A program made the position numbers and the translations under genes. This document shows positions 624-61,681 of a stretch of DNA of 64,000 nt, one piece after another. A model generated the notes under the pieces. That model was not told the DNA's origin. It did no database searches and saw only the letters and a list, made by a program, of their open reading frames with translations. Each line of letters opens with the position of its first letter. Position 1 is the first letter of the stretch. This stretch comes from Escherichia phage vB_EcoS_MM-2: the sequence record PV577658. The stretch is one strand, 5' to 3'.

Positions 624-1452
624 ATTAATTATTATTAGCGGTGCAGGTTTGAGTGTTGAAAGTGGTGTACGAGCTTTTCGTACTGATACTGCTAGTGGTA
701 AAGCATTGTGGGATGACTATGATCTAGAAGAAGTATGTAATATTCATGCCTTTCGTGGTAATTTTTATCATAAAACCCACATGTTTTACAACAAGCGTCG
801 TGAAGAGCTAAAAACTGTTGAACCCAATCTTGCGCATTTGCGTATTGGTGAATGGTATAAACAATATCCAGGTCAAGTAGTAAACTTGACTACCAACGTT
901 GATGACCTTATTGAGCGTGCTGGCGTCCCACATAGTGACATTCTGCACATTCACGGATATTTAAAAGAGGTTGTTGTAGCTGATAGCTACAATAGTAGCA
1001 ATAAACGGATTATTGATGTAGGATACAATTCTATTGATCCAGATGATTATAAATGGGTTAAACCTAATGTAATCTTCTTTGGAGAGCATGCTCCTGCATA
1101 CGCAGAAATGTATAATGTTTTTGATGGTATTACCAGTCAAGATATGATCATTGTGGTTGGTTGCTCTAACCAAGTAATTAACTTCTACTGGGAATTATTT
1201 CCTGTTCTTAATTTGACTGCTGCGAAACTTATGGTTGTTAACTACTATGATAGTGCCCTCGCAGCGGAACCGGTCTATCAAGGTATGACTCGTAGTGAGA
1301 TGTACCAGCTGGAGGAACGCGGTATCCCTTACTGGAGTAAAGGTGCGGTAGATGCTTTCAGTGACCCTGATTTTATTGCTCGTGTAGAAGCTCATTTAGA
1401 GGGTAGACCTTATGTGTCGAGAAGCAAGAGAAACAGGTATGTCCATAGTTAA
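616..1452 (+). CDS. Sir2-family (sirtuin-like) NAD-binding protein, apparently lacking the Zn-ribbon module
   Basis: Motifs SGAGLSVESGVRAFR (Sir2 GAGIS..SGIP.FR), TTNVDDLIERAG (TQNID-like), HIHGYL (catalytic His), VIFFGEH, VVGCSNQV. No Cys-x2-Cys pairs between the His motif and the FGE motif. Confidence 0.7.
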   Translation: MRRLIIISGAGLSVESGVRAFRTDTASGKALWDDYDLEEVCNIHAFRGNFYHKTHMFYNKRREELKTVEPNLAHLRIGEWYKQYPGQVVNLTTNVDDLIERAGVPHSDILHIHGYLKEVVVADSYNSSNKRIIDVGYNSIDPDDYKWVKPNVIFFGEHAPAYAEMYNVFDGITSQDMIIVVGCSNQVINFYWELFPVLNLTAAKLMVVNYYDSALAAEPVYQGMTRSEMYQLEERGIPYWSKGAVDAFSDPDFIARVEAHLEGRPYVSRSKRNRYVHS

Positions 1453-1621
1453 ATCTGTATATACACATCCCGACGATATATTTGTATGGGCAGATGGTAG
1501 TTGGTGCTATCGCTGTGAGCTGTGGGAGATGGACTATAAATCCGATGACTATGGTGTTATATATGTTGATACGGTTGAGTATGATACGTTCTTAGAAAGG
1601 AACAAAAATGGAAATAAGTAA
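1412..1621 (+). CDS. hypothetical protein (likely starts at internal Met near 1439)
   Basis: Track ORF overlapping the Sir2-like gene end; no motif. Confidence 0.35.
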   Translation: MCREARETGMSIVKSVYTHPDDIFVWADGSWCYRCELWEMDYKSDDYGVIYVDTVEYDTFLERNKNGNK

Positions 1622-2114
1622 TACTCCAATTATTTTTCTAGATATTGATGGGGTGCTCAATTCGAGCATCTCCCACCATCATGCACCTGATGACGAAAAG
1701 ATTTTCTTTGGAAGTGACTGGGTTTTCAAGCCGCTTCTCAAGGCTTTTCAGGACTTTATTCGTCCTTCTCCAATAATGATTGTTGGAGTATCATCTTGGT
1801 TCTCTGTCAGAAATGAGATGGAGAACGTTCAGATTATGACCGGATTAGGTCTTATCGATCGTTTTCTTGGTACAACGGATTTTACTGGGGGTGGGTTATC
1901 TAGGGGTAATTCTGTCCTTCGCTTCGTTGAAAAGCATAAGCTCAAACATTGGTGTGTTCTGGATGACGCTGGTGCTATGATGTATCAGTATCCAACGGTT
2001 ATAGTCAACGGTAGAACTGGAATAAATCTTCAAGATTTAATGGCTGTTAGCTATATGTTAGAGTTTAGTCCAGATCTTGAAATGTGTAAATCCTTACAAC
2101 AATTTAAGGTGTAA
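1608..2114 (+). CDS. HAD-superfamily phosphatase-like protein
   Basis: N-terminal FLDIDGVLN (HAD motif I, DxDG[TV]); remainder not assignable by eye. Confidence 0.5.
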   Translation: MEISNTPIIFLDIDGVLNSSISHHHAPDDEKIFFGSDWVFKPLLKAFQDFIRPSPIMIVGVSSWFSVRNEMENVQIMTGLGLIDRFLGTTDFTGGGLSRGNSVLRFVEKHKLKHWCVLDDAGAMMYQYPTVIVNGRTGINLQDLMAVSYMLEFSPDLEMCKSLQQFKV

Positions 2115-2116
2115 AT

Positions 2117-2545
2117 ATGTTCAATAATGTATTCTCTAAAGAAGCTAACCCAATTTTGGTTAACTTTTGGCGTACTCTCCCAGCTAGCCTGTATAATGAG
2201 GCTATTAACTCCTTGAAAATATGGTGTGAGAATAACGAAATCTCCTTTGCTTTTAAAGATGATATTGATGAGGCCCCCTGTATTGGTTTAATTGTGCAGG
2301 TAGAGGATGGTCTTGAAGAGATTGTCGGCTGGAAAGAGTTAGATGAAATGGGCTTAATTTTTGCGTTAAACTATAAGCTGTTTATGCCTGCTAAGCATCG
2401 CCTAGTTGTTAACTATAAAACTAGTGAATCTCCTGGTTTTCAGGTTAATGAACGTTATGGTTGGTCTTACTCACCGGAAGAAGTAAATGAGGGGATTCAG
2501 AAACTTCGACGTTTCGGGTATATGATCCCAGGTTTAACTGCTTAA
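2117..2545 (+). CDS. hypothetical protein, paralog 1 of a tandem pair
   Basis: Clear similarity to the downstream ORF: shared PCIG, W.EL..MGLI.ALN..LF.P, and C-terminal G(Y/I)(M/Y)(I/V)PGL. Confidence 0.5.
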   Translation: MFNNVFSKEANPILVNFWRTLPASLYNEAINSLKIWCENNEISFAFKDDIDEAPCIGLIVQVEDGLEEIVGWKELDEMGLIFALNYKLFMPAKHRLVVNYKTSESPGFQVNERYGWSYSPEEVNEGIQKLRRFGYMIPGLTA

Positions 2546-2554
2546 GGAGGCAGA

Positions 2555-2946
2555 ATGGAACAAGTATATTGGCGTCAGATTGACCCTAGTTTGGTGAAAC
2601 GTGCGGAGAAGCTGCTACAACGTTGGTTGTGGGTAAGACAAGCCTCCTTCACTTTTCCGAGCAGCAAACAGATGATCCCTGTATTGGTGTTTTCCTATCC
2701 GGCTACGCCGGGGAATGGGAATTGGATTGGAATGAATTGTCTGCTATGGGTTTAATTGTTGCCCTAAATTTCTCTTTGTTCCATCCACGTGGGTTGGCCA
2801 TACGTCGTGTGCCGGGTGATGGTTGTTCGCCCCATTTTTTACAGGTGGAAGATGATATTTGGGAGTACACTCCAGATATTCTCGCAGAAGCTAAAGAACA
2901 ATTAAATCGTGTTGGGATTTATGTTCCAGGCCTAAATGATGAATGA
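2555..2946 (+). CDS. paralog 2 of the tandem pair, reading frame interrupted (needs a -1 shift near 2653-2656)
   Basis: Track ORF 2555..2755 (frame 2) ends in ASFTF and track ORF 2623..2946 (frame 1) continues SEQQTDDPCIG; joined they align with paralog 1 (ISFAFKDDIDEAPCIG). Confidence 0.4.
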
Positions 2947-3031
2947 TTTTTATTAGCTGAAATTTGTAATCCGGGCTATTAGTGCTCGGATTATTACATA
3001 ATCTTTTCAGTCGATTGACAGTCAAAATAAA

Positions 3032-3538
3032 TTGTCGTTGACAATTTGGATGGATTATGTAATAATATATGTATTGGAGGTGAGGATGTCATTCACACAG
3101 CAAGAACTTTTAGATAACTTCCGATATGAAGATGGTAAGTTATTTAGAACTACAGGAAGAAATGCAGGGAAAGAATGTTGTGTTTCTACAGGTAACGGAT
3201 ATTATCGTATATCTCTAGGGAATAGGACTATGCTTCGGCATAGAGCAATATTTTTAATGCATCATGGATACTTACCTGATTTAGTAGATCATGTGAATAC
3301 TATAAAAGGTGATGATCGTATTGAAAATCTTAGAGAGCAGACAGTATCCGGTAATCTAAGAAATATCAAATATAAGAAAGGAATGCATGTTTACCCTTCT
3401 GGTAGTAAGAACTGGCAAGTGGTATTTACTATTAACCGTAAACGTATAGTTAAAGGAACATATGACAACTATGAGGTTGCATGTTCTATGGCCAAGATGT
3501 TTAGAGGTCAATTATACGGTAGGGAATCAATCCAGTAA
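3032..3538 (+). CDS. HNH homing endonuclease (likely start at Met ~3086)
   Basis: HNH motif LVDHVNTIKGDDRIENLREQT; free-standing between unrelated genes. Confidence 0.7.
   Translation: MSLTIWMDYVIIYVLEVRMSFTQQELLDNFRYEDGKLFRTTGRNAGKECCVSTGNGYYRISLGNRTMLRHRAIFLMHHGYLPDLVDHVNTIKGDDRIENLREQTVSGNLRNIKYKKGMHVYPSGSKNWQVVFTINRKRIVKGTYDNYEVACSMAKMFRGQLYGRESIQ
3038..3066 (+). promoter_or_regulatory. sigma70-like promoter upstream of the HNH gene, inside a TTGACAGTCAA palindrome region
   Basis: Two TTGACA hexamers (~3014 and ~3038), AT-rich -10 (aataat) 17 bp downstream of the second, then GGAGGTGA RBS. Confidence 0.4.
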
Positions 3539-3546
3539 AATTTCAT

Positions 3547-3600
3547 TTGCAAGGGAGTATTATTTTATAGTATAATATTCCCATAAATGAGAGACATTAG
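3547..3600 (+). promoter_or_regulatory. early-type promoter (TTGCAA-18-TATAAT plus conserved downstream box)
   Basis: ttgcaa ... tataat followed by attcccataaatgagag, a variant of the ATTCATAAATTTGAGAG box seen after other promoters in the window. Confidence 0.55.
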
Positions 3601-4073
3601 TAAAAATTGATTTTGCTAATTTTTCTTGTTTACAATCCGCGATACGGAACAGTTAGGCTGCCCCATTAAGGGTTGTTTTAACTGTTACGTGTTAGTTTTT
3701 AAACAAATAGTTAATAGAATACTTAGCGATCTACATCCCGTAGGAACCCTGGTAAGGCCTCGAAGCAACCTAGTGTGAGGTGGTTGTGAAGTGAGACGGG
3801 AAGAGTGAAAAACTCTGAGAAGTGATGACGTAAGGTATACTGCATCTAGTATGAGCTAGTACATGAAGCATTAGGTGAGCAAATCTGGCTTAGCGGCCAT
3901 CCTCAAGGATTTGTGCGGTATAGTGAAGCGGCAGTGTAGCGTGAAAGGGGAAGTTGCCACCCCCCTTCAGTATTTGCGATTAATTTGTTGAGAAATTGAC
4001 AGTAACAGTTGTTCTATTCTTTCTGAATAGTCCTAAAGAAAACTTATTTCATTTCCAACACAGGAGTATTGTT
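3601..4073 (+). other. ~470 bp non-coding, relatively GC-rich region downstream of a promoter; candidate ncRNA or cis-acting replication element
   Basis: No ORF of 60 aa or more on either strand; local stem-loops (e.g. gaaagggg..cccccttc near 3943-3968); sits directly upstream of the large helicase gene. Confidence 0.3.
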
Positions 4074-6860
4074 GTGTTCTCAATCCTACAAGGTCATGCA
4101 GGATTTCATCGCGATTTAGCCACAGGCATTTGGCGAGAAGTTAAAGCAGAAGACTATCTTTTTGCTAAAAGATTTTCCTCAAAGCATCCTGAAGGTAAAC
4201 CAGCTTCAATGCCCTTCAAGTTTGATGTAATTGATGAAGTTGATCCTCAAACCCTAGTAGAAATGCTCCCTCTTATGAGACGTTTAACGTCTGACCCTCA
4301 TATCGTTGCGGTACGAGGTCGATGTCTTGCACCCAAAAATAATGTGCGGCGTAAGAAGGGCAACTTTAATGTATCTAACCCAAGTCATATAATTGCAATG
4401 GACGTGGATGGTATTGTAGATACAGGTGGTTGTAACAAGTTTGATCTTGTTGGCATGGCTCGACATATTATTAGAATGTTAAATAGTATTAGTGAGGATA
4501 TGTTTCCTCTTGATGCAGGGTTTATTGCTCATGCATCGTCTTCGGCTGGGCTAAAACCAGGTATCCGAATGCACTTAATACTAGAATCTAATGTTAAAGT
4601 AACTCAGGGTCAAATCAAATTCTTATTTACATCTATCAATGAAAGTAGTAGACAAAAGTATGGCTTTGATATTGCCGACTTAGCTTATTACTCTTCCGTA
4701 CAGCTCCATTATTTTGCAGATCCGTTATTTACCGATGGTATAGTAGATCCGTTTAAGGCGGAGGGTGCTTCACGTCTGGTATTTGTTAAGGGTTCTAAAG
4801 TAAACTTACCTAATAATCTGGTTGACTATGAAACAACTAGAGGTGAGTTTAAGGAGGAGTTTTACTCTTTACTCGATCAAATTAAAGGTAAAAAAGCTGC
4901 CTCCGATAAAGTAGAGGAAACTATCAGCGAACTAGAAGAAGCTGAGGATGGAGTGTATCTACGTATCATACCTAAACTCTATCACAGAGCTTTAGAGGAT
5001 GGTGTTGATTTTGCATGGCTAGAAAAAGAAATCCGTCCAGCCTTATCAGAATATATTGCAACCAAAGATAATAGTCGTAATATTCAAGATTACTTTAATA
5101 ACGGTCGTAAACAGGCTCTGAAAGCATTTGTTAATAATTCTAAACGCGATATACCTGATGTTTTAAAAGGTATTCCACTTAAAAAGCTAGAAACTAACTC
5201 TCTAGAAACTGATAACTTCTTGAAATTAAATACTGTACCACCAGAAGGTTATATGACTTTTGTAAAAGCAAGTCTAGGTACAGGTAAAACTACGGCGGTT
5301 GTGCGTTGGTTAGATTCAGGAGTTATTAAAGGTAATTTCTTAGCAATTACCAATACTCGAGCACTGGTATCTTCAAATGCTAAGAAATTTAGTGCAGGAC
5401 AATATGATAAGTCTGTAGATATGCTTAATTTTAAGCGTGGTGCTATTGACCGTATGTCCACAACTATTCACTCTTTGCATAAGTTCAAGAGTTTTATTGG
5501 TCAAATCGATGCAATCTTTATAGATGAATGTGATGCTGTAATGAATGACCTATTATTCGCCCCGGTTGTTAAACAACGTCGTGAATGTATTCAGGTTCTT
5601 CGGGATATTCTTGCAACTGCAAAAATCATTATATTATCTGATGGGGATATTAGTGCAGAAACAATTGAAGCATATGGTTCTTTAATTGAGTTTGATAAAC
5701 CGGTTGCATTTTATAATCATCACCGAAAAATGCTATCAAAAGCTCATGCCTACGAGTTCCCTGATGAATCCAGTATTTGGGTTGCACTTCAGACTTCTCT
5801 AGAGATGGGTGAGAAATCTATCCTAGTATCTGACTGTGGGCCGGATGAACTGAATGAGAAGGGCATGGCGTTGCGTCGTAATACGGGTGCGTTAGTTAAG
5901 GAAATCCACTCAAACTCTACGTCTGATGTAGATATTCGACGTATTCTGGATTACACAACTAATGAGTTAATTGACCAACAAATTGATTGCTTATTATGTA
6001 GTCCATCCGTAACGAGTGGTGTTGACTTCAACTATTTTGATAACGTATTCGTTATTACTAGAACCAGTAACCAAGCGCCAAACATGCGTTTTCAAGCAAT
6101 CAGGCGCGACCGTGGTGCTCAGAACATTTATTATTTTATTGATAAATCTACGAGTGGATTCTCCGCAGGCTCTGAACAATATAATATTGATGAAGGTTGG
6201 CTGGAGTTAGCACAGCAATTATACGCACGTCGTAGGGAGCTGGAGTCTAGGAACTATACTAGTACTTTACGTTATTACTTGCTTGATCAGGGTGCAACTA
6301 TTGATATTTTCAGTGAAAGCTGGGGAACTATCGAAGGTGCAGGTAAAGAGTATACAGAAGAGCGAATCAAAGCCATTTTGTATTCAACTCCTGATTATTG
6401 TGCTCCACGCCATGCAGATGCATATGAAGCTAAACTACTTCTTGTTCGCTATTATCATCTTGAGTCTATTAAAGATGTAACAGTTGAGCATGTTGAGCAA
6501 TACATTAAGGATAAACCGAATGATCGAGCGGCATTCTTCCATAAAATGCACGAGATGTTCTGGGAAGATATTAAGAAGTGTTCAAATGTCACTATCAAAC
6601 CATTCATAGAAGCTCTGAAAGGCAAGAAGAAAGATTTCTTCCTTAAAACAGGTCAGAGTGCTAACCCAAAATATGCCAGAATGTATCTTGGTATGATGGG
6701 TATTGGCAAGGATATGAACACGGAGAATATTGTAGACTGGTACAGAACTTATTGTAAAATCGAGTGTATGCCAATTCCTTTCAAATTCATGACAGAGGAA
6801 GAGAAGGCTATGGCAGAAGAAGTACTGTCCGAACTTGGAGCAACTAATGAAGACGCATAA
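3996..6860 (+). CDS. large P-loop NTPase / helicase, putative replication initiation or origin-binding protein (probable start GTG ~4074)
   Basis: Walker A LGTGKTT and Walker B FIDECD; AGGAG RBS 7 nt before an in-frame GTG at ~4074; about 930-954 aa. Confidence 0.6.
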   Translation: MTVTVVLFFLNSPKENLFHFQHRSIVVFSILQGHAGFHRDLATGIWREVKAEDYLFAKRFSSKHPEGKPASMPFKFDVIDEVDPQTLVEMLPLMRRLTSDPHIVAVRGRCLAPKNNVRRKKGNFNVSNPSHIIAMDVDGIVDTGGCNKFDLVGMARHIIRMLNSISEDMFPLDAGFIAHASSSAGLKPGIRMHLILESNVKVTQGQIKFLFTSINESSRQKYGFDIADLAYYSSVQLHYFADPLFTDGIVDPFKAEGASRLVFVKGSKVNLPNNLVDYETTRGEFKEEFYSLLDQIKGKKAASDKVEETISELEEAEDGVYLRIIPKLYHRALEDGVDFAWLEKEIRPALSEYIATKDNSRNIQDYFNNGRKQALKAFVNNSKRDIPDVLKGIPLKKLETNSLETDNFLKLNTVPPEGYMTFVKASLGTGKTTAVVRWLDSGVIKGNFLAITNTRALVSSNAKKFSAGQYDKSVDMLNFKRGAIDRMSTTIHSLHKFKSFIGQIDAIFIDECDAVMNDLLFAPVVKQRRECIQVLRDILATAKIIILSDGDISAETIEAYGSLIEFDKPVAFYNHHRKMLSKAHAYEFPDESSIWVALQTSLEMGEKSILVSDCGPDELNEKGMALRRNTGALVKEIHSNSTSDVDIRRILDYTTNELIDQQIDCLLCSPSVTSGVDFNYFDNVFVITRTSNQAPNMRFQAIRRDRGAQNIYYFIDKSTSGFSAGSEQYNIDEGWLELAQQLYARRRELESRNYTSTLRYYLLDQGATIDIFSESWGTIEGAGKEYTEERIKAILYSTPDYCAPRHADAYEAKLLLVRYYHLESIKDVTVEHVEQYIKDKPNDRAAFFHKMHEMFWEDIKKCSNVTIKPFIEALKGKKKDFFLKTGQSANPKYARMYLGMMGIGKDMNTENIVDWYRTYCKIECMPIPFKFMTEEEKAMAEEVLSELGATNEDA

Positions 6861-35680: not shown

Positions 35681-35710
35681 CATAAAGAAAAGGAGGACTC
35701 AAAGTCCTCC
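35681..35710 (-). terminator. rho-independent terminator downstream of the tape-measure gene
   Basis: ggaggac-tcaaa-gtcctcc hairpin followed on the minus strand by ttttctttatgg. Confidence 0.6.
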
Positions 35711-35717
35711 TCCAGTT

Positions 35718-44409: not shown

Positions 44410-44446
44410 TTTTTCCCAATAAAAAAGGAGAGCCGAAGCTCTCCTT
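44410..44446 (-). terminator. rho-independent terminator downstream of the major capsid gene
   Basis: ggagagc-cgaa-gctctcc hairpin with the same flanking module as the 39405 terminator. Confidence 0.6.
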
Positions 44447-53659: not shown

Positions 53660-53770
53660 TTTGACTTTTGCCAAATTTCATAAGATTACACATGGAGGTG
53701 TGTCCAGTGGGTCGGGGGAGAATACTTAGTCTGCTAACCGCCACCCCCCGTTACTATTATCATGGTAATT

Positions 53771-53807
53771 GTTTCACCCTGCAATTAAAATGGTTGCAGG
53801 GTGAAAC
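53771..53807. terminator. bidirectional terminator hairpin (perfect 14-bp stem)
   Basis: gtttcaccctgcaa-ttaaaatgg-ttgcagggtgaaac between the plus-strand peptide array and the minus-strand dmp-like gene. Confidence 0.7.
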
Positions 53808-53824
53808 AATTTCAACTTTAATTA

Positions 53825-54601
53825 TTACGCAACTTTTAATTTCTCGATATATTGTTGCGGGCTGCAACTATATTCTGCGCGTTCTTCCTCGGTCATACCT
53901 TCCCAACATAATTTCAAACGATCAGCTAGGAATTGATAATCATTATCATCATCGAGGGATTCATCAATAAAGGTTTCACCTATCAATGCCACGCCGATTG
54001 ATAGAATATCGTTAACGGCTTGCGCGTCCAGCGTTTTAAATCCGTATGATGCCGCCGCTGATAGTACACCCTTATGATCATCAATCATTGTAAAATCAGC
54101 GTTCGGATATAACTGTTTAAATAATTCAAAATAATAAGATTTATAAACTGCGTCTTTGCTGTGGTATATCTCGCTAACTTTATCAGCCTCAAAATATTTA
54201 TGCAGTGTATCGCGAGAAAACACGCGGATATTACTATCACCACGACCGCGCAAGCCTTGTTTGCGCAAATAATAATAGTCCGACTTGCTCATTAGTCGAG
54301 CGGTACAAATAATGTTTAAAGTATTTGCGTCATTCATGCACTGGCGCATATATGTAACAAGGGGCAATAAAGTATCTTGCATTATTAAATCATGTTTGCA
54401 GGCTTCATTTTTATACTTATTTAAATCTAAATTGCCCTCGCTATCAAAGCAAGGCGCTACACGATGGAAAGAATTAATGATAGTGCCGTCCAGATCCCAA
54501 ATCATGACGCGGGAAATATGCGGGAAATTACGGGTAATATTCATTTTAACTTGATTCATTTTGTTACGTTCTCCATTAAAGGGATTTAGTTTATCCAGCA
54601 T
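53825..54601 (-). CDS. dmp: HAD-family 5'-deoxyribonucleotidase-like protein (T5 dmp-like)
   Basis: HAD motif I MIWDLDGTI; first gene of a minus-strand operon with A1/A2-like genes; likely internal start giving ~244 aa. Confidence 0.55.
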   Translation of the reverse strand: MLDKLNPFNGERNKMNQVKMNITRNFPHISRVMIWDLDGTIINSFHRVAPCFDSEGNLDLNKYKNEACKHDLIMQDTLLPLVTYMRQCMNDANTLNIICTARLMSKSDYYYLRKQGLRGRGDSNIRVFSRDTLHKYFEADKVSEIYHSKDAVYKSYYFELFKQLYPNADFTMIDDHKGVLSAAASYGFKTLDAQAVNDILSIGVALIGETFIDESLDDDNDYQFLADRLKLCWEGMTEEERAEYSCSPQQYIEKLKVA

Positions 54602-54639
54602 TACCCGCTATTTATAAGCGGGTAATAATAAATCAACTA

Positions 54640-55032
54640 TTAAAGACCATAAGCCAACGCATCAGCGATAAAACTAACATCCTCACCGGATACGCTAGAA
54701 CGAATCCCCGCGCAGGTGTATACCTTTGCGCTCGCTAGCTGATCATCAAGGCAAGCGGGGCAAGGCGCGACAACTGCAAAGGCTAGACCAGATTTTACCG
54801 CGTCAATAATGATTGTTTCTTGTTTCATCGTGTCAACATAAACGCCTTTTGCTTTAATATGGCTGGTTAGTTTGCCTTGCGTATAGGCAAAGGTAGTAAC
54901 CTGTAAAGCGTCATTGAAATCTAATAATTCATCAATAACGTGCCCCGCCTCGACGTGGTAACGTTCACCATTAGAATAAACCAGAACAATGGAAGACTGA
55001 GCGCGATCGAATGGAATATTTTGCTTTTTCAT
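54640..55032 (-). CDS. small Cys/His-containing protein, possibly deaminase-like zinc-binding
   Basis: HVEAGH ... PCPAC motifs, but spacing (~70 aa) is longer than in canonical cytidine deaminases. Confidence 0.3.
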   Translation of the reverse strand: MKKQNIPFDRAQSSIVLVYSNGERYHVEAGHVIDELLDFNDALQVTTFAYTQGKLTSHIKAKGVYVDTMKQETIIIDAVKSGLAFAVVAPCPACLDDQLASAKVYTCAGIRSSVSGEDVSFIADALAYGL

Positions 55033-55071
55033 ACTTATAAAACTCCAATTAGTTTAATATAGGGATTTAAT

Positions 55072-55362
55072 TTATTTGATAATAATCTGCATCTGGTACG
55101 GCGTTAATTCACCGTTTACGGGTAAATTATTATCGCTTAGCCACTCATAAAAAGCGCCATCATCATCAAAAGGAACAACATCATTATCACGATAATCGAT
55201 GGAAATAATGCCATCCGTATTAGTTTTGGCGGCTAGGATAGGCCCAAAGCTGTAAACTTTATCGGATTCCATTTCATCCGGTGAGATGAATGCTTTTTCG
55301 TCCAATGTTTTGGGTAATGTAACTTTCATTTTTTGACTCCTGTAATAGCGGCTATATTTCAA
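55072..55362 (-). CDS. hypothetical pre-early protein (likely start at Met ~55329)
   Basis: Track ORF with conserved upstream translation-initiation region. Confidence 0.4.
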   Translation of the reverse strand: MKYSRYYRSQKMKVTLPKTLDEKAFISPDEMESDKVYSFGPILAAKTNTDGIISIDYRDNDVVPFDDDGAFYEWLSDNNLPVNGELTPYQMQIIIK

Positions 55363-55382
55363 GCCGCTAGGGGATAATTTAA

Positions 55383-57047
55383 TTACGCGAAAAATTTACC
55401 GTTTTTAAAGTCAATCAAAGTGCGCTGACCGTTTGCATAGGTAATTAAATGCGTTTGCGTCCAGCTTGACGCGCCAACGTTGTAACCCATATCCAGACTA
55501 CCAGCTACGCCAGCGGTATAAACGCCACCGTAAATGCTAGCGGTATGGGTGTGTCCCGTGTTTAGCTTGCCCAATTTCTTAAACTGTTTAGGATTGCCAC
55601 GACTGCCGTTAATGCCGTTGTGACCGTGTACGCCGCACTCAATGCCTGCAATCTTGAAAGATTGATCAGTGGTTAGGAAAATGGCGTTAAACTCACAACC
55701 TGCAACCTTGCGCAGCGCATAATCTAGCACGTTAAAAGTATCATCATGATCACTGATCGCCGCGTAAATTGCAGCATTCAGGCGGTGATATAGTTCGGCG
55801 TTGGCTGGATCGTCTTTGATGTTAGCATTACGATCATCTAACCAGCGGGATAGCGCCAAATCGTGATTAGATTCAACAATGATTGTTTGAGAGAAATCAC
55901 GTTCCATTGATTCCAGCACGCGCCCCGTATCGATAAGATCATCCAGAACTTTATCACGTCCAGCGGCATACTGTTTTGCTAGGAATACACCGGATGCACG
56001 GTTATGATGATTGCGCGATGTAAAATCATGCACGTCATGGATAAACTGATATTTTGGTTTAAGAATATCAAGCAAGCTATTTTCGCCAGCCCATGACGCA
56101 ACGGCACAATCATCATCTAATTTTTCCGCATGAATATCGCCATACTGCAAGCCTAAAACATGCCCCGATGTTTCATAGCATCCGGCAGGAGTAGCGCAAA
56201 CATTCAGATCATAAAACACCCCGCTTTCGTCCATTGTTTCAAGCTGGCGAACAAAAAATTCCCCGTCCTCGTCGAACTCAACAATCAGCGCGCCGAAGTT
56301 ATGCAGAGCTTCCGCTTTTTGTCCTGCTTTCTGCTGAATATAGTTTTTAAGCGTTGCCGTTCCGGTTGAATACATACGGCGCACTACTTCACCTTTTAAA
56401 GCTGGCACGCTTTCAGCGGTGATTTTAGCGTGACCAATTGCCAGCCCCTCAATATTGAGCGCCGTTGCAGTTTCTGCAAATCCTGAAAGCGGGTAATCTG
56501 CGGTTGGCAAAACATTAATTTCAGCCATGAAAGCAAAACGGCGGTTATTTAAAAACACGTTTTTGCTGCAAATATATTTATCAAATGCGGGATCGTATTT
56601 GATACCGTCTGCACCTTCTTCATTCTGGAAGCCATTTTTATTATAAATATACTTAGAAACAAGCAAATCAGCACCGATATATTCAGCGAATTTTTCCAGA
56701 CTTGCTAAAAAGTTTTTATGCGGGAAAGTATTATTTTGAATCGACGTAATAATAAAGCGTTTACCCTGTTTTACTTCCCATTGCTCAACCGTACTAGAAA
56801 CAATTCCCGCCGCTTCTGGGCGCTCATCGTTTTTAATGGCTTTTGCTACTTTTGCCGCTTTCGGTTTAGCTGGTTTATTTGCTTCCAGCCAGTCGCAGAT
56901 AGCGGTTGAATGCTTCGTTGTATCGTAGACCGCTTTTGATATATCGTCGCAGACTTCCAGTTTAGTAGCGCGCAGACGTTTACCATAGAAATTAAAGTCA
57001 GCGGCCATTTTCAGGATAACGGTTTGTTTTTCTGCGGAAATAATCAT
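55383..57047 (-). CDS. A1: A1-like pre-early protein with calcineurin-like metallophosphoesterase motifs
   Basis: 554 aa; GDIHAE and GHTHTAS metallophosphatase-type motifs; size and context match T5 A1 as I recall it. Confidence 0.6.
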   Translation of the reverse strand: MIISAEKQTVILKMAADFNFYGKRLRATKLEVCDDISKAVYDTTKHSTAICDWLEANKPAKPKAAKVAKAIKNDERPEAAGIVSSTVEQWEVKQGKRFIITSIQNNTFPHKNFLASLEKFAEYIGADLLVSKYIYNKNGFQNEEGADGIKYDPAFDKYICSKNVFLNNRRFAFMAEINVLPTADYPLSGFAETATALNIEGLAIGHAKITAESVPALKGEVVRRMYSTGTATLKNYIQQKAGQKAEALHNFGALIVEFDEDGEFFVRQLETMDESGVFYDLNVCATPAGCYETSGHVLGLQYGDIHAEKLDDDCAVASWAGENSLLDILKPKYQFIHDVHDFTSRNHHNRASGVFLAKQYAAGRDKVLDDLIDTGRVLESMERDFSQTIIVESNHDLALSRWLDDRNANIKDDPANAELYHRLNAAIYAAISDHDDTFNVLDYALRKVAGCEFNAIFLTTDQSFKIAGIECGVHGHNGINGSRGNPKQFKKLGKLNTGHTHTASIYGGVYTAGVAGSLDMGYNVGASSWTQTHLITYANGQRTLIDFKNGKFFA

Positions 57048-57137
57048 AGTAATAAAACTCCATTAAAGGGATTAGATTAATAACGGCAATATTGCCAAAT
57101 ATAACGCCTCAAATAATAGGCGTTATAATTTGCAACA

Positions 57138-57335
57138 TTAATTTAAAGGCACTAGGCTAGAACTAACACCACAAGCAACGGCAGCGATAAAACAAAGCAA
57201 GCCCAAACGTTTTGCTAATTTAGATTTACGTTTAAAATAATATGAATCTAAATCATTTTGAAAATAAGCGAACAATAACGAGGGCGCCATAATAAACAAG
57301 CCTAGAATTAATGATTCAGTAGGATAAAAGATCAT
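57138..57335 (-). CDS. small membrane protein (two predicted TM helices)
   Basis: MIFYPTESLILGLFIMAPSLLFAYF ... LGLLCFIAAVACGVSS; AGGAG RBS. Confidence 0.4.
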   Translation of the reverse strand: MIFYPTESLILGLFIMAPSLLFAYFQNDLDSYYFKRKSKLAKRLGLLCFIAAVACGVSSSLVPLN

Positions 57336-57429
57336 TTTAAAAACTCCTGATTTAAGGGAAGAAAATAACTATCGCTAAACAGTTATATTATTGCCCCCTC
57401 ACTAAAAAAAGGGGGGCAAGGTATAACTA

Positions 57430-57837
57430 TTATTCGCCTGCGGCTTGTTTTACTTCCTCGGCAACGCCTAACAATTGCGCTACTGCGTCCAGCGTTTCAA
57501 GTTTTGCACTTTCAAGGCTTGCCAGATCATCGGCATCTTTGATAATGCCGGAATCGATAGCGTGTTTTGCAATAACGCGTACATAATGAGCTTTGCGGAT
57601 TGAACTACCGCCGCCAACTTTGCGGGGCTTACCGCTTTTTTGATATGCTTTTGCGCTGGTCAATTTTGACCGAACGGATACGGGAGAAGCCGCGCCTACT
57701 GCTTTTGCAATCTCTTTCAGGCCGTCGCTATTTGCGAAATCTAAACCGTTTTCATTAATTAACTGTTGATACATGGAAACAGCTTTCTGAGTGTTTTCTT
57801 CATTCCATGCGAATTTTGCGGTTTTAGCGTTAGTCAT
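57430..57837 (-). CDS. A2: A2-like pre-early DNA-binding protein
   Basis: 135 aa (~15 kDa), basic central region; position upstream of the A1-like gene. Confidence 0.5.
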   Translation of the reverse strand: MTNAKTAKFAWNEENTQKAVSMYQQLINENGLDFANSDGLKEIAKAVGAASPVSVRSKLTSAKAYQKSGKPRKVGGGSSIRKAHYVRVIAKHAIDSGIIKDADDLASLESAKLETLDAVAQLLGVAEEVKQAAGE

Positions 57838-57933
57838 GATGTAACTCCTATTAGTTTAATTTAAGGGATTAGATTAACTTAATGTTAATCGTTATATCCC
57901 CCTGAAATAAGGGGATATAAAGTTAACACTAAT

Positions 57934-58185
57934 TTACAATACAGCTTCCCATTTTTCGTTGCGTTGAACAACCTTTACAACATCGCCGGATTTAACGCGA
58001 ACGCTAAAAACGGGCTTGCCGTTGTTACTACGTTCATTTTCAGCGTATACCGCGTCGATTGTATCGAACGGCATAAGCGCCGCACCTTTAATACGTTCGG
58101 CCTTTCCGGTTAATTCATCCGTTTTAGTAACGAAAGGAATGAAGACGAATTGACCAACTTTCGGCGCGGTAATAACGTTTTGCAT
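57934..58185 (-). CDS. hypothetical pre-early protein
   Basis: 83 aa; first gene of the minus-strand block. Confidence 0.4.
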   Translation of the reverse strand: MQNVITAPKVGQFVFIPFVTKTDELTGKAERIKGAALMPFDTIDAVYAENERSNNGKPVFSVRVKSGDVVKVVQRNEKWEAVL

Positions 58186-58415
58186 AATATAAACTCCTAG
58201 TTATTTGGGGATTGTTCCGCATTACCTGCTAGAAAGTAACAGCAGGTAATAAGTAACAATCCGCTCGCCAATATAATCAATTTTAAAGAACTCCACGTAG
58301 GCCGCTATATCCCGTTAGGGGGCGGGATGCATTATGGTAAGCACCGACCGTCAAATTTTATCAAGTTATCGCTCTTATCGAACTGGGTACATCTTAAAAC
58401 CTATCGGCTAGGTTG

Positions 58416-58619
58416 TCAAACAATTTTTTGCAATTTTTTATGATTTTCTTTTAGGTCAATCATAATATTTCGCCAGATCATTTCCAGACCTTGCTGGCGA
58501 CCTTTCTTGTACTGCGTGAATCTATATCTTACTGATCTTTGAGCTACTGTCAACAAATTTTTTGTTTTGCTATCTAGTGCCTTAATAGGCTTGCCAGTGA
58601 TCAAAAGCGTTTGTTTCAT
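58416..58619 (-). CDS. hypothetical small basic protein
   Basis: 67 aa, Lys/Arg-rich; weak RBS. Confidence 0.3.
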   Translation of the reverse strand: MKQTLLITGKPIKALDSKTKNLLTVAQRSVRYRFTQYKKGRQQGLEMIWRNIMIDLKENHKKLQKIV

Positions 58620-59066
58620 ATCGTCGATTCCTTATAATGAATAAGTTTACCGCCGATAGGCTTTAAGATGTACCCAATTTTTAAAGAGCGTGGCGGTAAA
58701 CTTCCCGCCGTGTAGTTCGTCATTGCCGCCCTACGAGATAAATAATAGGGGATTCCCGAAAATGGCGCAACCTTATTTTTGTAAAGAAATGTAAAGGTAA
58801 AACTCACCGGACACCGTGCGGCGACGGCCTAAAATTAAAAGAAACGGGCGCGCGAATACCACAAAATAAAGCAAATAGGCAAGTAATTTTTTCATTTATA
58901 TTTGCTTTGCCCTACTTGACAAAATCTAAAAAGCTCGTGGTAACGATAAACGGCTTATCCCCTTATGATGGGATGGCTAAAAACTTTATTGCGTTCTGGA
59001 GCGTTTTAGGCGCATTCTAGCCTTGTTGATAACTTATCCCCAAAAGCAAAAATGAAATTTTCCTAG

Positions 59067-59099
59067 TTATCCACTTGACTTTTATTTTCCAGTGGATAA
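59067..59099. promoter_or_regulatory. inverted pair of DnaA-box-like 9-mers around a TTGACT hexamer
   Basis: agTTATCCACTtgacttttattttccAGTGGATAAct; 11-bp perfect inverted repeat, each arm one mismatch from TTATCCACA. Confidence 0.5.
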
Positions 59100-59273
59100 C
59101 TACTTATTTTATGAAATAAATTAATTGACTTTTATTTGTTAGTATGCATCGGAAAGATAGCAGACTAATAATTGCTAGAATGATAATCATGCTGGTGGAT
59201 TGTAACGACCTGAATTATTAGCAGACTATTAATCACGGAAAAATCTCATTAGCCAACTAACTATTTCATGATA

Positions 59274-59300
59274 TATAATATACATATAAATTAATGAGAA
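59274..59300 (+). promoter_or_regulatory. promoter-like element of the early family
   Basis: tataat followed by atacatataaattaatgagaaa box; no convincing -35; no gene for ~430 bp downstream. Confidence 0.35.
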
Positions 59301-59351
59301 ATAATAACTATAAGAAATCATCTAGCTAAGTGAGAACCACTATCATTTAAG

Positions 59352-59372
59352 TTATACACAAAGTTATCCACA
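59352..59372 (+). promoter_or_regulatory. two adjacent DnaA-box-like sites
   Basis: gTTATACACAaagTTATCCACAgc: one perfect consensus 9-mer and one with a single mismatch. Confidence 0.5.
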
Positions 59373-59443
59373 GCACTTTTTGACTTGACACGATAGGCGG
59401 CGATATAAGGACTTTTACACAGACTTATCTACAGGTTATTCCA

Positions 59444-60736: not shown

Positions 60737-60801
60737 TAATATTTAGTGGGGATTATTTCCCCACTTTACTACTCCCTTGTTAATTAATAGGAGGCTAACT
60801 A

Positions 60802-61296: not shown

Positions 61297-61323
61297 TGTA
61301 AAGTTTTGTAAAGGTCGCCTTTT

Positions 61324-61632
61324 ATGGTGGCCTTTTTTGTTATAATGCTTTTACACCAAAACGGTGGATTGAAAATTTTCCCAAAAATTTGGAGGCTTAA
61401 AATGGTTGCTTATTCTTCTGCTAGTCATCTGTTTACCGCGCAAGGCTGGGTATCTAATCGTGCTGTCATCTATGAAATGGTGCAGGAGTTCGGCATTGCT
61501 AAAACTTATAATACCATTCAGGAACTATATAACGCCGATAAAATCGATCAGCAAACGGCTGGCTTTTTACTGGATACCCTGAAAGCTGAACATTGCACTA
61601 AAAAACAAGCCGCTAAAATTGTTTTAATGTAA
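61324..61632 (+). CDS. hypothetical protein (likely start at Met ~61402)
   Basis: GGAGG RBS precedes the internal Met; followed by hairpin cggggcg..cgccccg. Confidence 0.4.
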   Translation: MVAFFVIMLLHQNGGLKIFPKIWRLKMVAYSSASHLFTAQGWVSNRAVIYEMVQEFGIAKTYNTIQELYNADKIDQQTAGFLLDTLKAEHCTKKQAAKIVLM

Positions 61633-61681
61633 TTAATAACGGGGCGTTACTTTCGCCCCGATAACTAGGAGGCTATCACAA

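Follow-up and report, generated by a model that had tools for sequence, protein, structure and literature searches.

The 64,000-nt stretch of Escherichia phage vB_EcoS_MM-2 analyzed here (sequence record PV577658; hereafter the window) raises the question of how the cistrons of one minus-strand operon, at 53825-58185, are separated from one another and how each of them is started. T5 pre-early genes are expressed within minutes, from 8% of the genome, by unmodified host machinery. A sequence-only reading had taken the locus for an operon of this type, in which hairpins between the cistrons and near-identical initiation regions would serve a co-ordinated, possibly RNase-processed expression of host-takeover genes.

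The 5-kb block around the locus is 100% identical to Escherichia phage vB_EcoS_MM-1 (Tequintavirus), whose right terminal repeat begins at about window position 53702. The T5 terminal repeat aligns across the entire block with 89% nucleotide identity and with gene order and orientation unchanged. Named from the T5 annotation of the identical left repeat, the genes are transcribed in the order T5.007, A2, T5.005, A1, T5.003, T5.002, and dmp. PHROG matches to the dmp, A1, and A2 homologues, in T5 order, had E-values of 1e-31 to 1e-244, and the A1 protein is 94% identical to T5 A1. Equivalents of the T5 promoters P-H22 and P-D/E20 lie upstream. The pre-early assignment was thus borne out, and sequence comparison identifies the block as more than pre-early-type: it is the canonical, already known leftward pre-early (first-step-transfer) operon of T5.

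The T5 reference annotation enters no feature in the intercistronic spacers. By comparing sequences, we could show that these spacers hold repeated modules of a stem-loop and a translation leader, that the stem-loops carry an RNA signature on the sense strand, and that the leader, which is specific to pre-early genes, is conserved to the same degree as the Shine-Dalgarno (SD) sequence. How the modules would act is weighed after this evidence.

Stem-loops between the pre-early cistrons

Perfect inverted repeats were counted across the window, and the folding of the non-coding segments (IG0 to IG7) was scored as z against dinucleotide shuffles. The three hairpins of the sequence-only reading were recovered as perfect 10-bp inverted repeats at 57100-57127, 57892-57920, and 58221-58250. 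Four further hairpins were found at 54600-54626 (10 bp), 55346-55369 (8 bp), 57391-57419 (8 bp), and, after dmp, 53767-53811 (18 bp). Seven hairpins therefore lie in 4.6 kb. The remaining 59 kb of the window have 19, and 16 were counted over 39.6 kb of early region, which is a 4- to 5-fold enrichment over the remaining genome. Folding was stronger than in the shuffles for seven of the eight non-coding segments (z = -2.5 to -5.2), and the 39-nt spacer between T5.003 and T5.002 showed no structure in folding (z +0.5). With imperfect flanking pairs, the stems reach ~19-25 bp in IG0, IG1, IG2, IG3, and IG6, often beginning at the upstream stop codon or a few bases from it; IG7 is a perfect 18 bp, and IG4 has 8 bp only. 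The elements are as follows.

58209..58262, minus strand: IG0, stem-loop in the 5' leader; core 58221-58250 of 10-12 bp, ~20 bp extended; z -3.7
57879..57932, minus strand: IG1, intercistronic stem-loop; core 57892-57920 of 10-12 bp, ~23 bp in all, the outer stem beginning 1-4 nt past the T5.007 stop codon; z -4.3
57380..57429, minus strand: IG2, intercistronic stem-loop; core 57391-57419; z -2.5
57084..57137, minus strand: IG3, intercistronic stem-loop; core 57100-57127 of 10 bp, ~18-21 bp with the outer stem, which takes in the stop codon; z -4.1
57084-57097, minus strand: small palindrome GGCAATATTGCC beside IG3
55346-55369, minus strand: hairpin in the T5.003 leader, 8 bp; z -3.7
54587..54639, minus strand: IG6, intercistronic stem-loop before dmp; core 54600-54626 of 10-11 bp, 21 bp extended from the stop codon; z -5.2
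53767..53811, minus strand: IG7, terminal 18-bp stem-loop, 13 nt past the dmp stop codon and 65-110 nt inside the terminal repeat; z -4.5

Next, 40 T5-like loci were taken from IMG/VR by way of the A1 protein, and each spacer was extracted. The sequence-only reading had made its case depend on conservation of the hairpins, and they are indeed kept in relatives, with compensatory changes and the sense-strand signature described below. In IG6, both partners have changed in 7 of 21 pairs, pairing holds in 90% of cells compared with 26-49% once partners are slid, and the covariation score is 0.245 against 0.158 in shuffles, none of 500 reaching it. In IG7, 8 of 18 pairs are compensatory, 96% of cells are paired (32-50% when slid), and covariation reaches 0.448 against 0.206 in shuffles (0/500). 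A single stem pair of IG1 was found as C-G, A-U, U-A, and G-C among relatives. The stem of IG3 is invariant, with a variable loop that includes a 16-nt insertion, and IG2 is occupied by two unrelated hairpins at one position in different genomes. Distant relatives were represented by Klebsiella Roth49, Pectobacterium My1, Proteus M4H10_20, and Vibrio D124 (A1 identity 73%, 66%, 42%, and 34%). In these phages, a hairpin of unrelated sequence lies in nearly every spacer longer than ~45 nt, at equivalent junctions. Judged by these alignments, the stems are shown to be under selection for pairing.

The sense orientation is favored over the antisense one. Over three alignments, 95 G·U cells were counted in sense orientation against 26 A·C cells, ~3.7 to 1 (21 against 9 when counted by pair), and in the terminal hairpin IG7 the numbers are 28 and 0. 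The sense strand of IG0, IG6, and IG7 folds 4-7 kcal/mol better than the antisense strand; for IG0, the sense fold is better by 4 kcal/mol in 19 of 24 relatives. Taken together, the G·U excess, the sense-strand folding, and the position between stop codon and ribosome site favor a function in the pre-early mRNA.

The stem-loops are related to one another in part. IG0 and IG6 are paralogous, sharing TTATTACCYGCT...AGCRGGTAATGC with one compensatory difference that was read directly, and IG1 and IG3 share TTAATCTAATCCCTT. The T5-type IG2 hairpin, AGTGGGGA-loop-TCCCCACT, recurs in the rightward operon of the window at 60745-60765. A MAFFT alignment of the seven cassettes recovered the leader block alone, as the hairpins differ too much to be aligned together. 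Relatives differ in the slot between A1 and T5.002, where a gene of 85 aa, one of 92 aa, a 169-aa HNH endonuclease, or no gene is found.

Two observations concern the end of the operon. In the left copy of the repeat, the post-dmp hairpin lies just ~65-110 nt from the physical DNA end, so that leftward transcripts may simply run off. Directly inside the terminal-repeat boundary, at 53702-53760, there is a G-rich block, ACGGGGGGTGGCGGTTAGC, which relatives have conserved in two variants and which may have a connection with the genome terminus.

The translation leader of the pre-early genes

All seven genes of the operon have one element in common, which consists of (A/T)TCCC (the C-tract), an A/T-rich and nearly G-free spacer, GGAG(T/A), 7-12 nt, and ATG; the spacer of T5.003 is interrupted by a hairpin. 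Co-ordinated expression, as proposed earlier, fits a leader common to all seven. The description of the initiation regions as near-identical was too strong, however, because the 28-mer AATCCCTTWAAWTAAACTAATWGGAGTT fits A2 only, whose leader is its sole match at up to 3 mismatches. The T5.002 leader is a copy shorter by 1 nt, the short form AATCCCTTTAATGGAG precedes both A1 and dmp, and the T5.007, T5.005, and T5.003 leaders resemble the 28-mer more loosely. The leaders read as follows.

58186..58213, minus strand: T5.007 leader, AATCCCC-AAATAACTA-GGAGTT-N8-ATG; only AATCC is invariant in relatives
57838..57870, minus strand: A2 leader, AATCCCTTAAATTAAACTAATAGGAGTT-N6-ATG; the sole exact match to the 28-mer
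57336..57361, minus strand: T5.005 leader, TTCCC-TTAAATCA-GGAGTT-N7-ATG
57048..57073, minus strand: A1 leader, AATCCCTTTAATGGAGTT-N9-ATG
55330..55375, minus strand: T5.003 leader, with the hairpin placed between the C-tract ATCCCC and the SD sequence AGGAG
55033..55067, minus strand: T5.002 leader, AATCCCTATATTAAACTAATTGGAGTT-N9-ATG, spacer without hairpin
54560..54586, minus strand: dmp leader, AATCCCTTTAATGGAGAA-N10-ATG; ATCCC and GGAGAA are invariant in 19 relatives

The pattern TCCC-N(6-39)-GGAG-N(7-12)-ATG occurs 14 times in the window, where 3.6 +/- 1.9 matches are expected. Seven of the 14 are the gene starts of this operon and three more are in the rightward pre-early operon. Genome-wide, the 28 nt ahead of GGAG-type starts contain TCCC at 8 of 15 terminal-repeat starts and at 5 of 79 others. 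This count catches six of the seven leftward genes; T5.003 is missed because its 24-nt hairpin separates the C-tract from GGAG. The SD sequence has a flavor of its own, GGAGTT in the leftward operon compared with GGAGGC in the rightward one.

Among the T5-like loci, the C-tract varies no more than the SD sequence does, and across 17 distinct relatives the A2 leader has an unbroken run of 14 invariant columns (ATCCCTTAAATTAA). The same layout, from C-tract to SD, was also observed in the Klebsiella (about 6/7), Proteus (4/6), and Pectobacterium relatives; the C-tract ahead of the SD is kept in the distant relatives except the Vibrio phage. Partition-function folds gave the CC of the C-tract as the main predicted partner of the SD GG, with a probability of 0.33-0.76 in five of the seven leaders, and in the minimum-energy fold of T5.003 the inserted hairpin clamps UCC to GGA. 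As this pairing has merely 2-3 bp, it could be at most a weak, transient mask of the SD. A stable pairing of a C-rich stretch with the SD, as in an SD-sequestering hairpin, was not seen in these folds, which gave UCC:GGA or CC:GG only, in a weak ensemble.

Two other readings of the leaders were tried and rejected. The A1 and A2 leaders contain AUCUAAUCC, a perfect complement of the 790 loop of 16S rRNA (nucleotides 785-793). We put this down to chance, because a 9-mer match occurs in 9% of shuffled leaders, because the other five leaders match 7-8 nt only (null mean 7.3), and because the Klebsiella and Proteus relatives do not have the box. A leader peptide within the 5' leader was considered as well, in the form of a 27-codon open reading frame that starts with TTG and overlaps IG0; its frame is broken by 1- and 2-nt indels in relatives.

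In one relative (L017), the spacer before A2, homologous to window positions 57870-57885, contains the pentamer TAATC three times; most genomes have it twice. This variation upstream of the C-tract points to replication slippage within the leader. Genes of the rightward pre-early operon are for the most part closely packed, their stop and start codons overlapping, and two of its spacers (60737-60801 and 61633-61681, plus strand) hold a module of this kind, with a leader behind a hairpin. The first of these leaders reads CTCCC...GGAGGC, and the second is a plain GGAGGC Shine-Dalgarno sequence with no C-tract.

Explanations for the modules

A scan for terminators (hairpin plus T-run) flagged none of the seven hairpins, none of which has a U-tract. 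Read directly, their 3' flanks are GCGGAA, CGATTA, TAATAT, TTTGGC, TTACAG, GCTGGA, and ACCATG. The hairpins do have the G+C-rich stem of an intrinsic terminator, and other hairpins in the genome bear the A-tract/T-tract flanks of bidirectional terminators. Lacking U-tracts, the seven are not classical terminators and should not carry a terminator annotation. Antisense terminators for plus-strand transcription were also considered and set aside, since a T-rich plus-strand tail is present only at the post-dmp hairpin, whose G·U pattern favors the minus-sense RNA. Within the intercistronic spacers, the sigma-70 promoter scan found no promoter; -10-like hexamers after the C-tract are without the essential A at position 2. 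Rfam gave no matching family, just two chance microRNA hits far under gathering scores.

RNA levels are available for Bas33, a close relative, in which expression is restricted to the pre-early region when the second transfer step is blocked. In operon order, the RNA-seq values (Dataset S1, on a transcripts-per-million scale) are 12199, 5207, 1171, 4925, 1143, 4425, and 2218 (PMC13250531). We consider it unlikely that the stem-loops are leaky intrinsic terminators or attenuators, which would step transcription down and leave promoter-proximal genes in excess. Such a role would suit G+C-cored hairpins directly past stop codons, and it would agree with a pipeline annotation of the IG6 hairpin in phage HdH2 ("putative transcriptional terminator, -15.40"), with the U-rich runs behind some homologous hairpins of Pectobacterium My1 and Proteus, and with the top RNA level of the first gene, T5.007, in Bas33. 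However, no U-tract or terminator-scan match was found for any of the seven, terminator-like hairpins elsewhere in the genome show clear A-tract/T-tract flanks, and Bas33 RNA rises after T5.005 (1171 to 4925) and after T5.003 (1143 to 4425). Since levels rise again after falling, attenuation alone cannot account for them; they fit segment-specific stability after processing. An action on DNA, where the inverted repeats would be cruciforms or protein-binding palindromes for injection, replication, or packaging of the terminal repeat, is very improbable. The elements are housed in a terminal repeat with DNA-level roles and have perfect palindromic cores, but G·U, a mismatch in DNA, is 3.7 times commoner than A·C in sense orientation (28 against 0 in IG7), three elements fold better on the sense strand, and every element falls exactly in the interval from a stop codon to the following ribosome site.

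The modules might also be mainly linkers through which homologous recombination swaps small pre-early genes in and out, a role proposed for the promoter-early stem-loops of T4-type phages, and they would then have little RNA function of their own. This reading, which we think improbable to the same degree as attenuation, would be compatible with the explanation preferred below. Module paralogy (IG0/IG6 and IG1/IG3), the presence of the T5-type IG2 hairpin in the rightward pre-early operon, the different genes in the A1-T5.002 slot, a partial duplication ending in a cassette in one relative (L015), and the variable TAATC copy number (L017) all speak for such linkers. Linkers, however, need sequence identity and not pairing, and the compensatory changes, the sense-strand G·U excess, and the replacement of one hairpin by an unrelated one point to selection on RNA structure. 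For the leader, one can conceive of an operator: (A/U)UCCC...GGAGUU would be bound by a trans-acting RNA-binding repressor, from phage or host, or by a nuclease, and translation would be shut off jointly at the transition from first-step to second-step transfer, as with T4 RegA/RegB. The restriction of the leader to the leftward pre-early genes (7/7 against 5/79 elsewhere), its SD-like conservation, its own SD flavor (GGAGTT against GGAGGC), and the finding that pre-early shut-off needs A1 by an unknown mechanism (PMC10644984) count for this. We nevertheless hold it to be less probable still than attenuation or linkers, as neither a candidate RNA-binding protein nor a second conserved contact is available, the distance from C-tract to SD ranges from 6 to 39 nt, only CC(C) is kept in more distant relatives, and a standard strong leader explains the pattern equally. 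Equally speculative is an extension in which the leader and the adjacent stem-loop form a dedicated cis-code, read by a trans-acting factor (A1-/A2-dependent, or a host RNase or RNA-binding protein) that silences or degrades all pre-early mRNAs jointly at the onset of the second transfer step; if true, it would explain the A1-dependent pre-early shut-off.

The best overall explanation, to which we give about an even chance, is that intercistronic stem-loop modules act at the RNA level, in processing or stability and in insulation, together with a pre-early translation leader. Host RNA polymerase would transcribe the operon from P-H22 and P-D/E20 as a polycistronic RNA. Each module of this RNA runs from the stop codon through a stem-loop (core of 8-18 bp, extending to ~19-25 bp, no U-tract) and a G-poor, A/U-rich leader beginning with (A/U)UCCC to GGAG(U/A), 7-12 nt, and AUG. 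The stem-loops may act post-transcriptionally as segment boundaries at which RNase III-type cleavage occurs, 3' exonucleases are stopped, or both, as in the early operon of T7. Each cistron would thereby have its own mRNA level, and the ribosome site of the following gene would be shielded from pairing with coding sequence upstream of it. The leader common to the operon could provide every pre-early gene with a ready-made, nearly structure-free start for unmodified host ribosomes, and its CC, as the sole nearby partner of the SD GG, may weakly and transiently mask the SD. RNase III- or RNase E-type processing, which we infer by analogy, is compatible with the data.

Several points weigh against this explanation. 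IG1, IG2, and IG3 fold equally well on the sense and antisense strands. The outer stems vary mainly on one side (G-C to G·U), with few true double changes, so that a length of 19-25 bp is less secure than the cores of 8-12 bp. The repeats could persist partly through duplication and gene conversion and not through function, and the CC:GG pairing of 2-3 bp is predicted partly for want of other C or G nearby. T7 RNase III sites have a large asymmetric internal loop and are less regular than the present stems, and cutting of both strands would remove a protective hairpin and not leave one. The literature searched gave no transcript-end data for any T5-like phage, and cleavage is therefore something we infer. 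The Bas33 values are gene-level, were obtained 20 min after infection, and come from a column taken as the maximum group mean; the two lowest belong to the shortest genes, which together with the late sample makes them weak evidence. Technical bias or internal promoters could contribute to their pattern.

The literature search on T5 with RNase III or stem-loops, including T5 mRNA processing, gave nothing relevant, and hairpins, terminators, and ribosome sites are mentioned neither in the Davison 2020 preprint nor in a 2026 preprint on T5 DNA degradation. The operon is thus known and its cis-architecture appears undescribed in the searchable literature; Davison's 2015 pre-early review lay outside that search, and a description there could not be excluded. 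The picture of T5 biology is unchanged unless processing or a trans-acting factor is demonstrated. The architecture nevertheless offers mutable targets for the dose setting of A1, A2, dmp, and the small takeover proteins, and for their shut-off. Synthetic operons could also borrow the stem-loop plus leader, which is a natural "insulated ribosome site", and the leader marks true start codons, such as 54559 and not 54601 for dmp, which allows better annotation.

Gene content, neighboring sites, and known systems

The promoters and genes, identified by the T5 annotation and by domain, PHROG, and promoter matches, are listed in transcription order.

58391..58553, minus strand: two sigma-70 promoter-like sites, TTGACA-16/17-TAAGAT, at 58553-58526 and 58419-58391, each with 10/12 matches in the promoter scan; the T5 annotation places P-H22 and P-D/E20 at the homologous positions
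57934..58185, minus strand: T5.007-like gene, 83 aa, DUF7177 (T5 annotation, domain and PHROG matches)
57430..57837, minus strand: A2, DNA-binding pre-early protein, 135 aa (T5 annotation, PHROG)
57138..57335, minus strand: T5.005-like membrane protein, 65 aa (T5 annotation, PHROG)
55383..57047, minus strand: A1, 554 aa (T5 annotation, PHROG), with the metallophosphoesterase-type motifs GDIH, GHNG, and GHTH in its translation
55072..55329, minus strand: T5.003-like gene, 85 aa (T5 annotation, PHROG)
54640..55032, minus strand: T5.002-like gene, 130 aa, PHROG of unknown function (T5 annotation, PHROG)
53825..54559, minus strand: dmp, deoxynucleoside-5'-monophosphatase, 244 aa from the ATG at 54559 (T5 annotation, PHROG)

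The earlier labels for dmp, A1, A2, and the membrane protein agree with this list, but that of a Zn-binding protein for the 130-aa T5.002 homologue is unsupported, as a Pfam search with this protein gave no match and its PHROG is one of unknown function. The block is also GC-richer, as had been claimed, at 40.95% against a window mean of 38.87%, with just 1.7% of intervals of the same size as high; the gap is 2 points, and the weight laid on it was overstated. In the MM-1 record, dmp is entered as a 258-aa "polynucleotide kinase" with a start at 54601. That upstream ATG is inside the 3' arm of a hairpin and has no SD, whereas the conserved leader (AATCCCTTTAATGGAG-N11-ATG) and the T5 annotation favor the ATG at 54559 (244 aa).

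Other sites in the window were observed as well. Seven of its 21 DnaA-box-like sites (TTATCCACA, up to 1 mismatch) are within 410 bp of non-coding DNA at 59024-59433, where ~0.13 are expected. The cluster separates the two divergent pre-early operons and lies in another part of the repeat than the injection-stop region, for which DnaA boxes have been reported in T5 and BF23. For the gene annotated at 61324-61632 (plus strand), the start at 61324 overlaps a terminator-like hairpin at 61310-61335. A leader, TTTTCCCAAAAATTTGGAGGC-N6-ATG, precedes an ATG at 61402 that would give 76 aa, the size of T5.012, and the start at 61324 is probably misannotated. In the late region, hairpins at 44425-44446 and 35691-35711 have SD-like and anti-SD-like arms. 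One, AAGGAGAGC...GCTCTCCTT, follows the major head gene and the other, AGGAGGAC...GTCCTCCT, follows the tape-measure gene; both may attenuate the late operon or act in its translation.

Compared with the leftward pre-early operon of T5, that of MM-1 differs in nothing essential, the genes, their order and orientation, the location in the repeat, and the promoters being alike. T5 carries the homing endonuclease hegG, which MM-1 does not have, and the hairpin between A2 and T5.005 is not the same one in the two phages.

Burial of the SD in a hairpin is the classic translational masking of phage homing-endonuclease genes. Such a gene was observed in phage HdH2 (L077; 1342-1921), where an HNH homing-endonuclease gene stands in place of T5.003 and its SD is wholly buried in a 14-bp hairpin (AAAUCCUCCAAUUAAU...AUUAAUUGGAGG). 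The leader of that gene, AAAUCCUCC, pairs perfectly with its own SD, and the pre-early leaders, which open with AAUCCC, are similar to it. Their complementarity is 2-3 bp, however, and would not form a stable block to the ribosome.

The promoter-early stem-loops (PeSLs) of T4-type phages combine a strong sigma-70 promoter with an effective terminator stem-loop (Arbiol et al. 2010, PMC2839356). Like the T5-type cassettes, they are repeated stop-to-ATG modules between small early genes, in which a stem-loop is followed by an SD, and they go along with plasticity in gene content. In contrast, the T5-type cassettes have no detectable promoter and their hairpins have no terminator features. Without a sigma-70 promoter, the cassettes are not self-contained expression units as PeSLs are.

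RNase III cleavage at the T7 early sites is proven. With the same program, the T7 sites R0.3, R0.5, R1, R1.1, and R1.3, at positions that we take to be those of Dunn and Studier, folded into interrupted hairpins of 17-22 bp and -22 to -26 kcal/mol. The hairpins described here, with 19-25 bp and -24 to -33 kcal/mol, are in the same size class, about two turns of double-stranded RNA, although the comparison of relatives supports their outer stems less well. Both kinds are intercistronic, lie in the first operon read by the host polymerase, and have no U-tract. The T7 sites, however, have a common sequence and an asymmetric internal loop of 3 to 5 nt next to a single cut. The folding comparison found neither this loop nor the T7 sequence in the T5-type stems, which have 1x1 or 2x2 mismatches only, larger apical loops (7-13 nt), and mutually different sequences.

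Bacterial stabilizer hairpins include the REP element between malE and malF, a member of a dispersed chromosomal repeat family, and the puf operon hairpins. As with these, the hairpins of the pre-early operon are stable, stand just past a cistron, have no U-tract, and occur in an operon whose cistrons have different mRNA levels. In contrast to REP elements, they are local, phage-specific, and coupled to a common translation leader.

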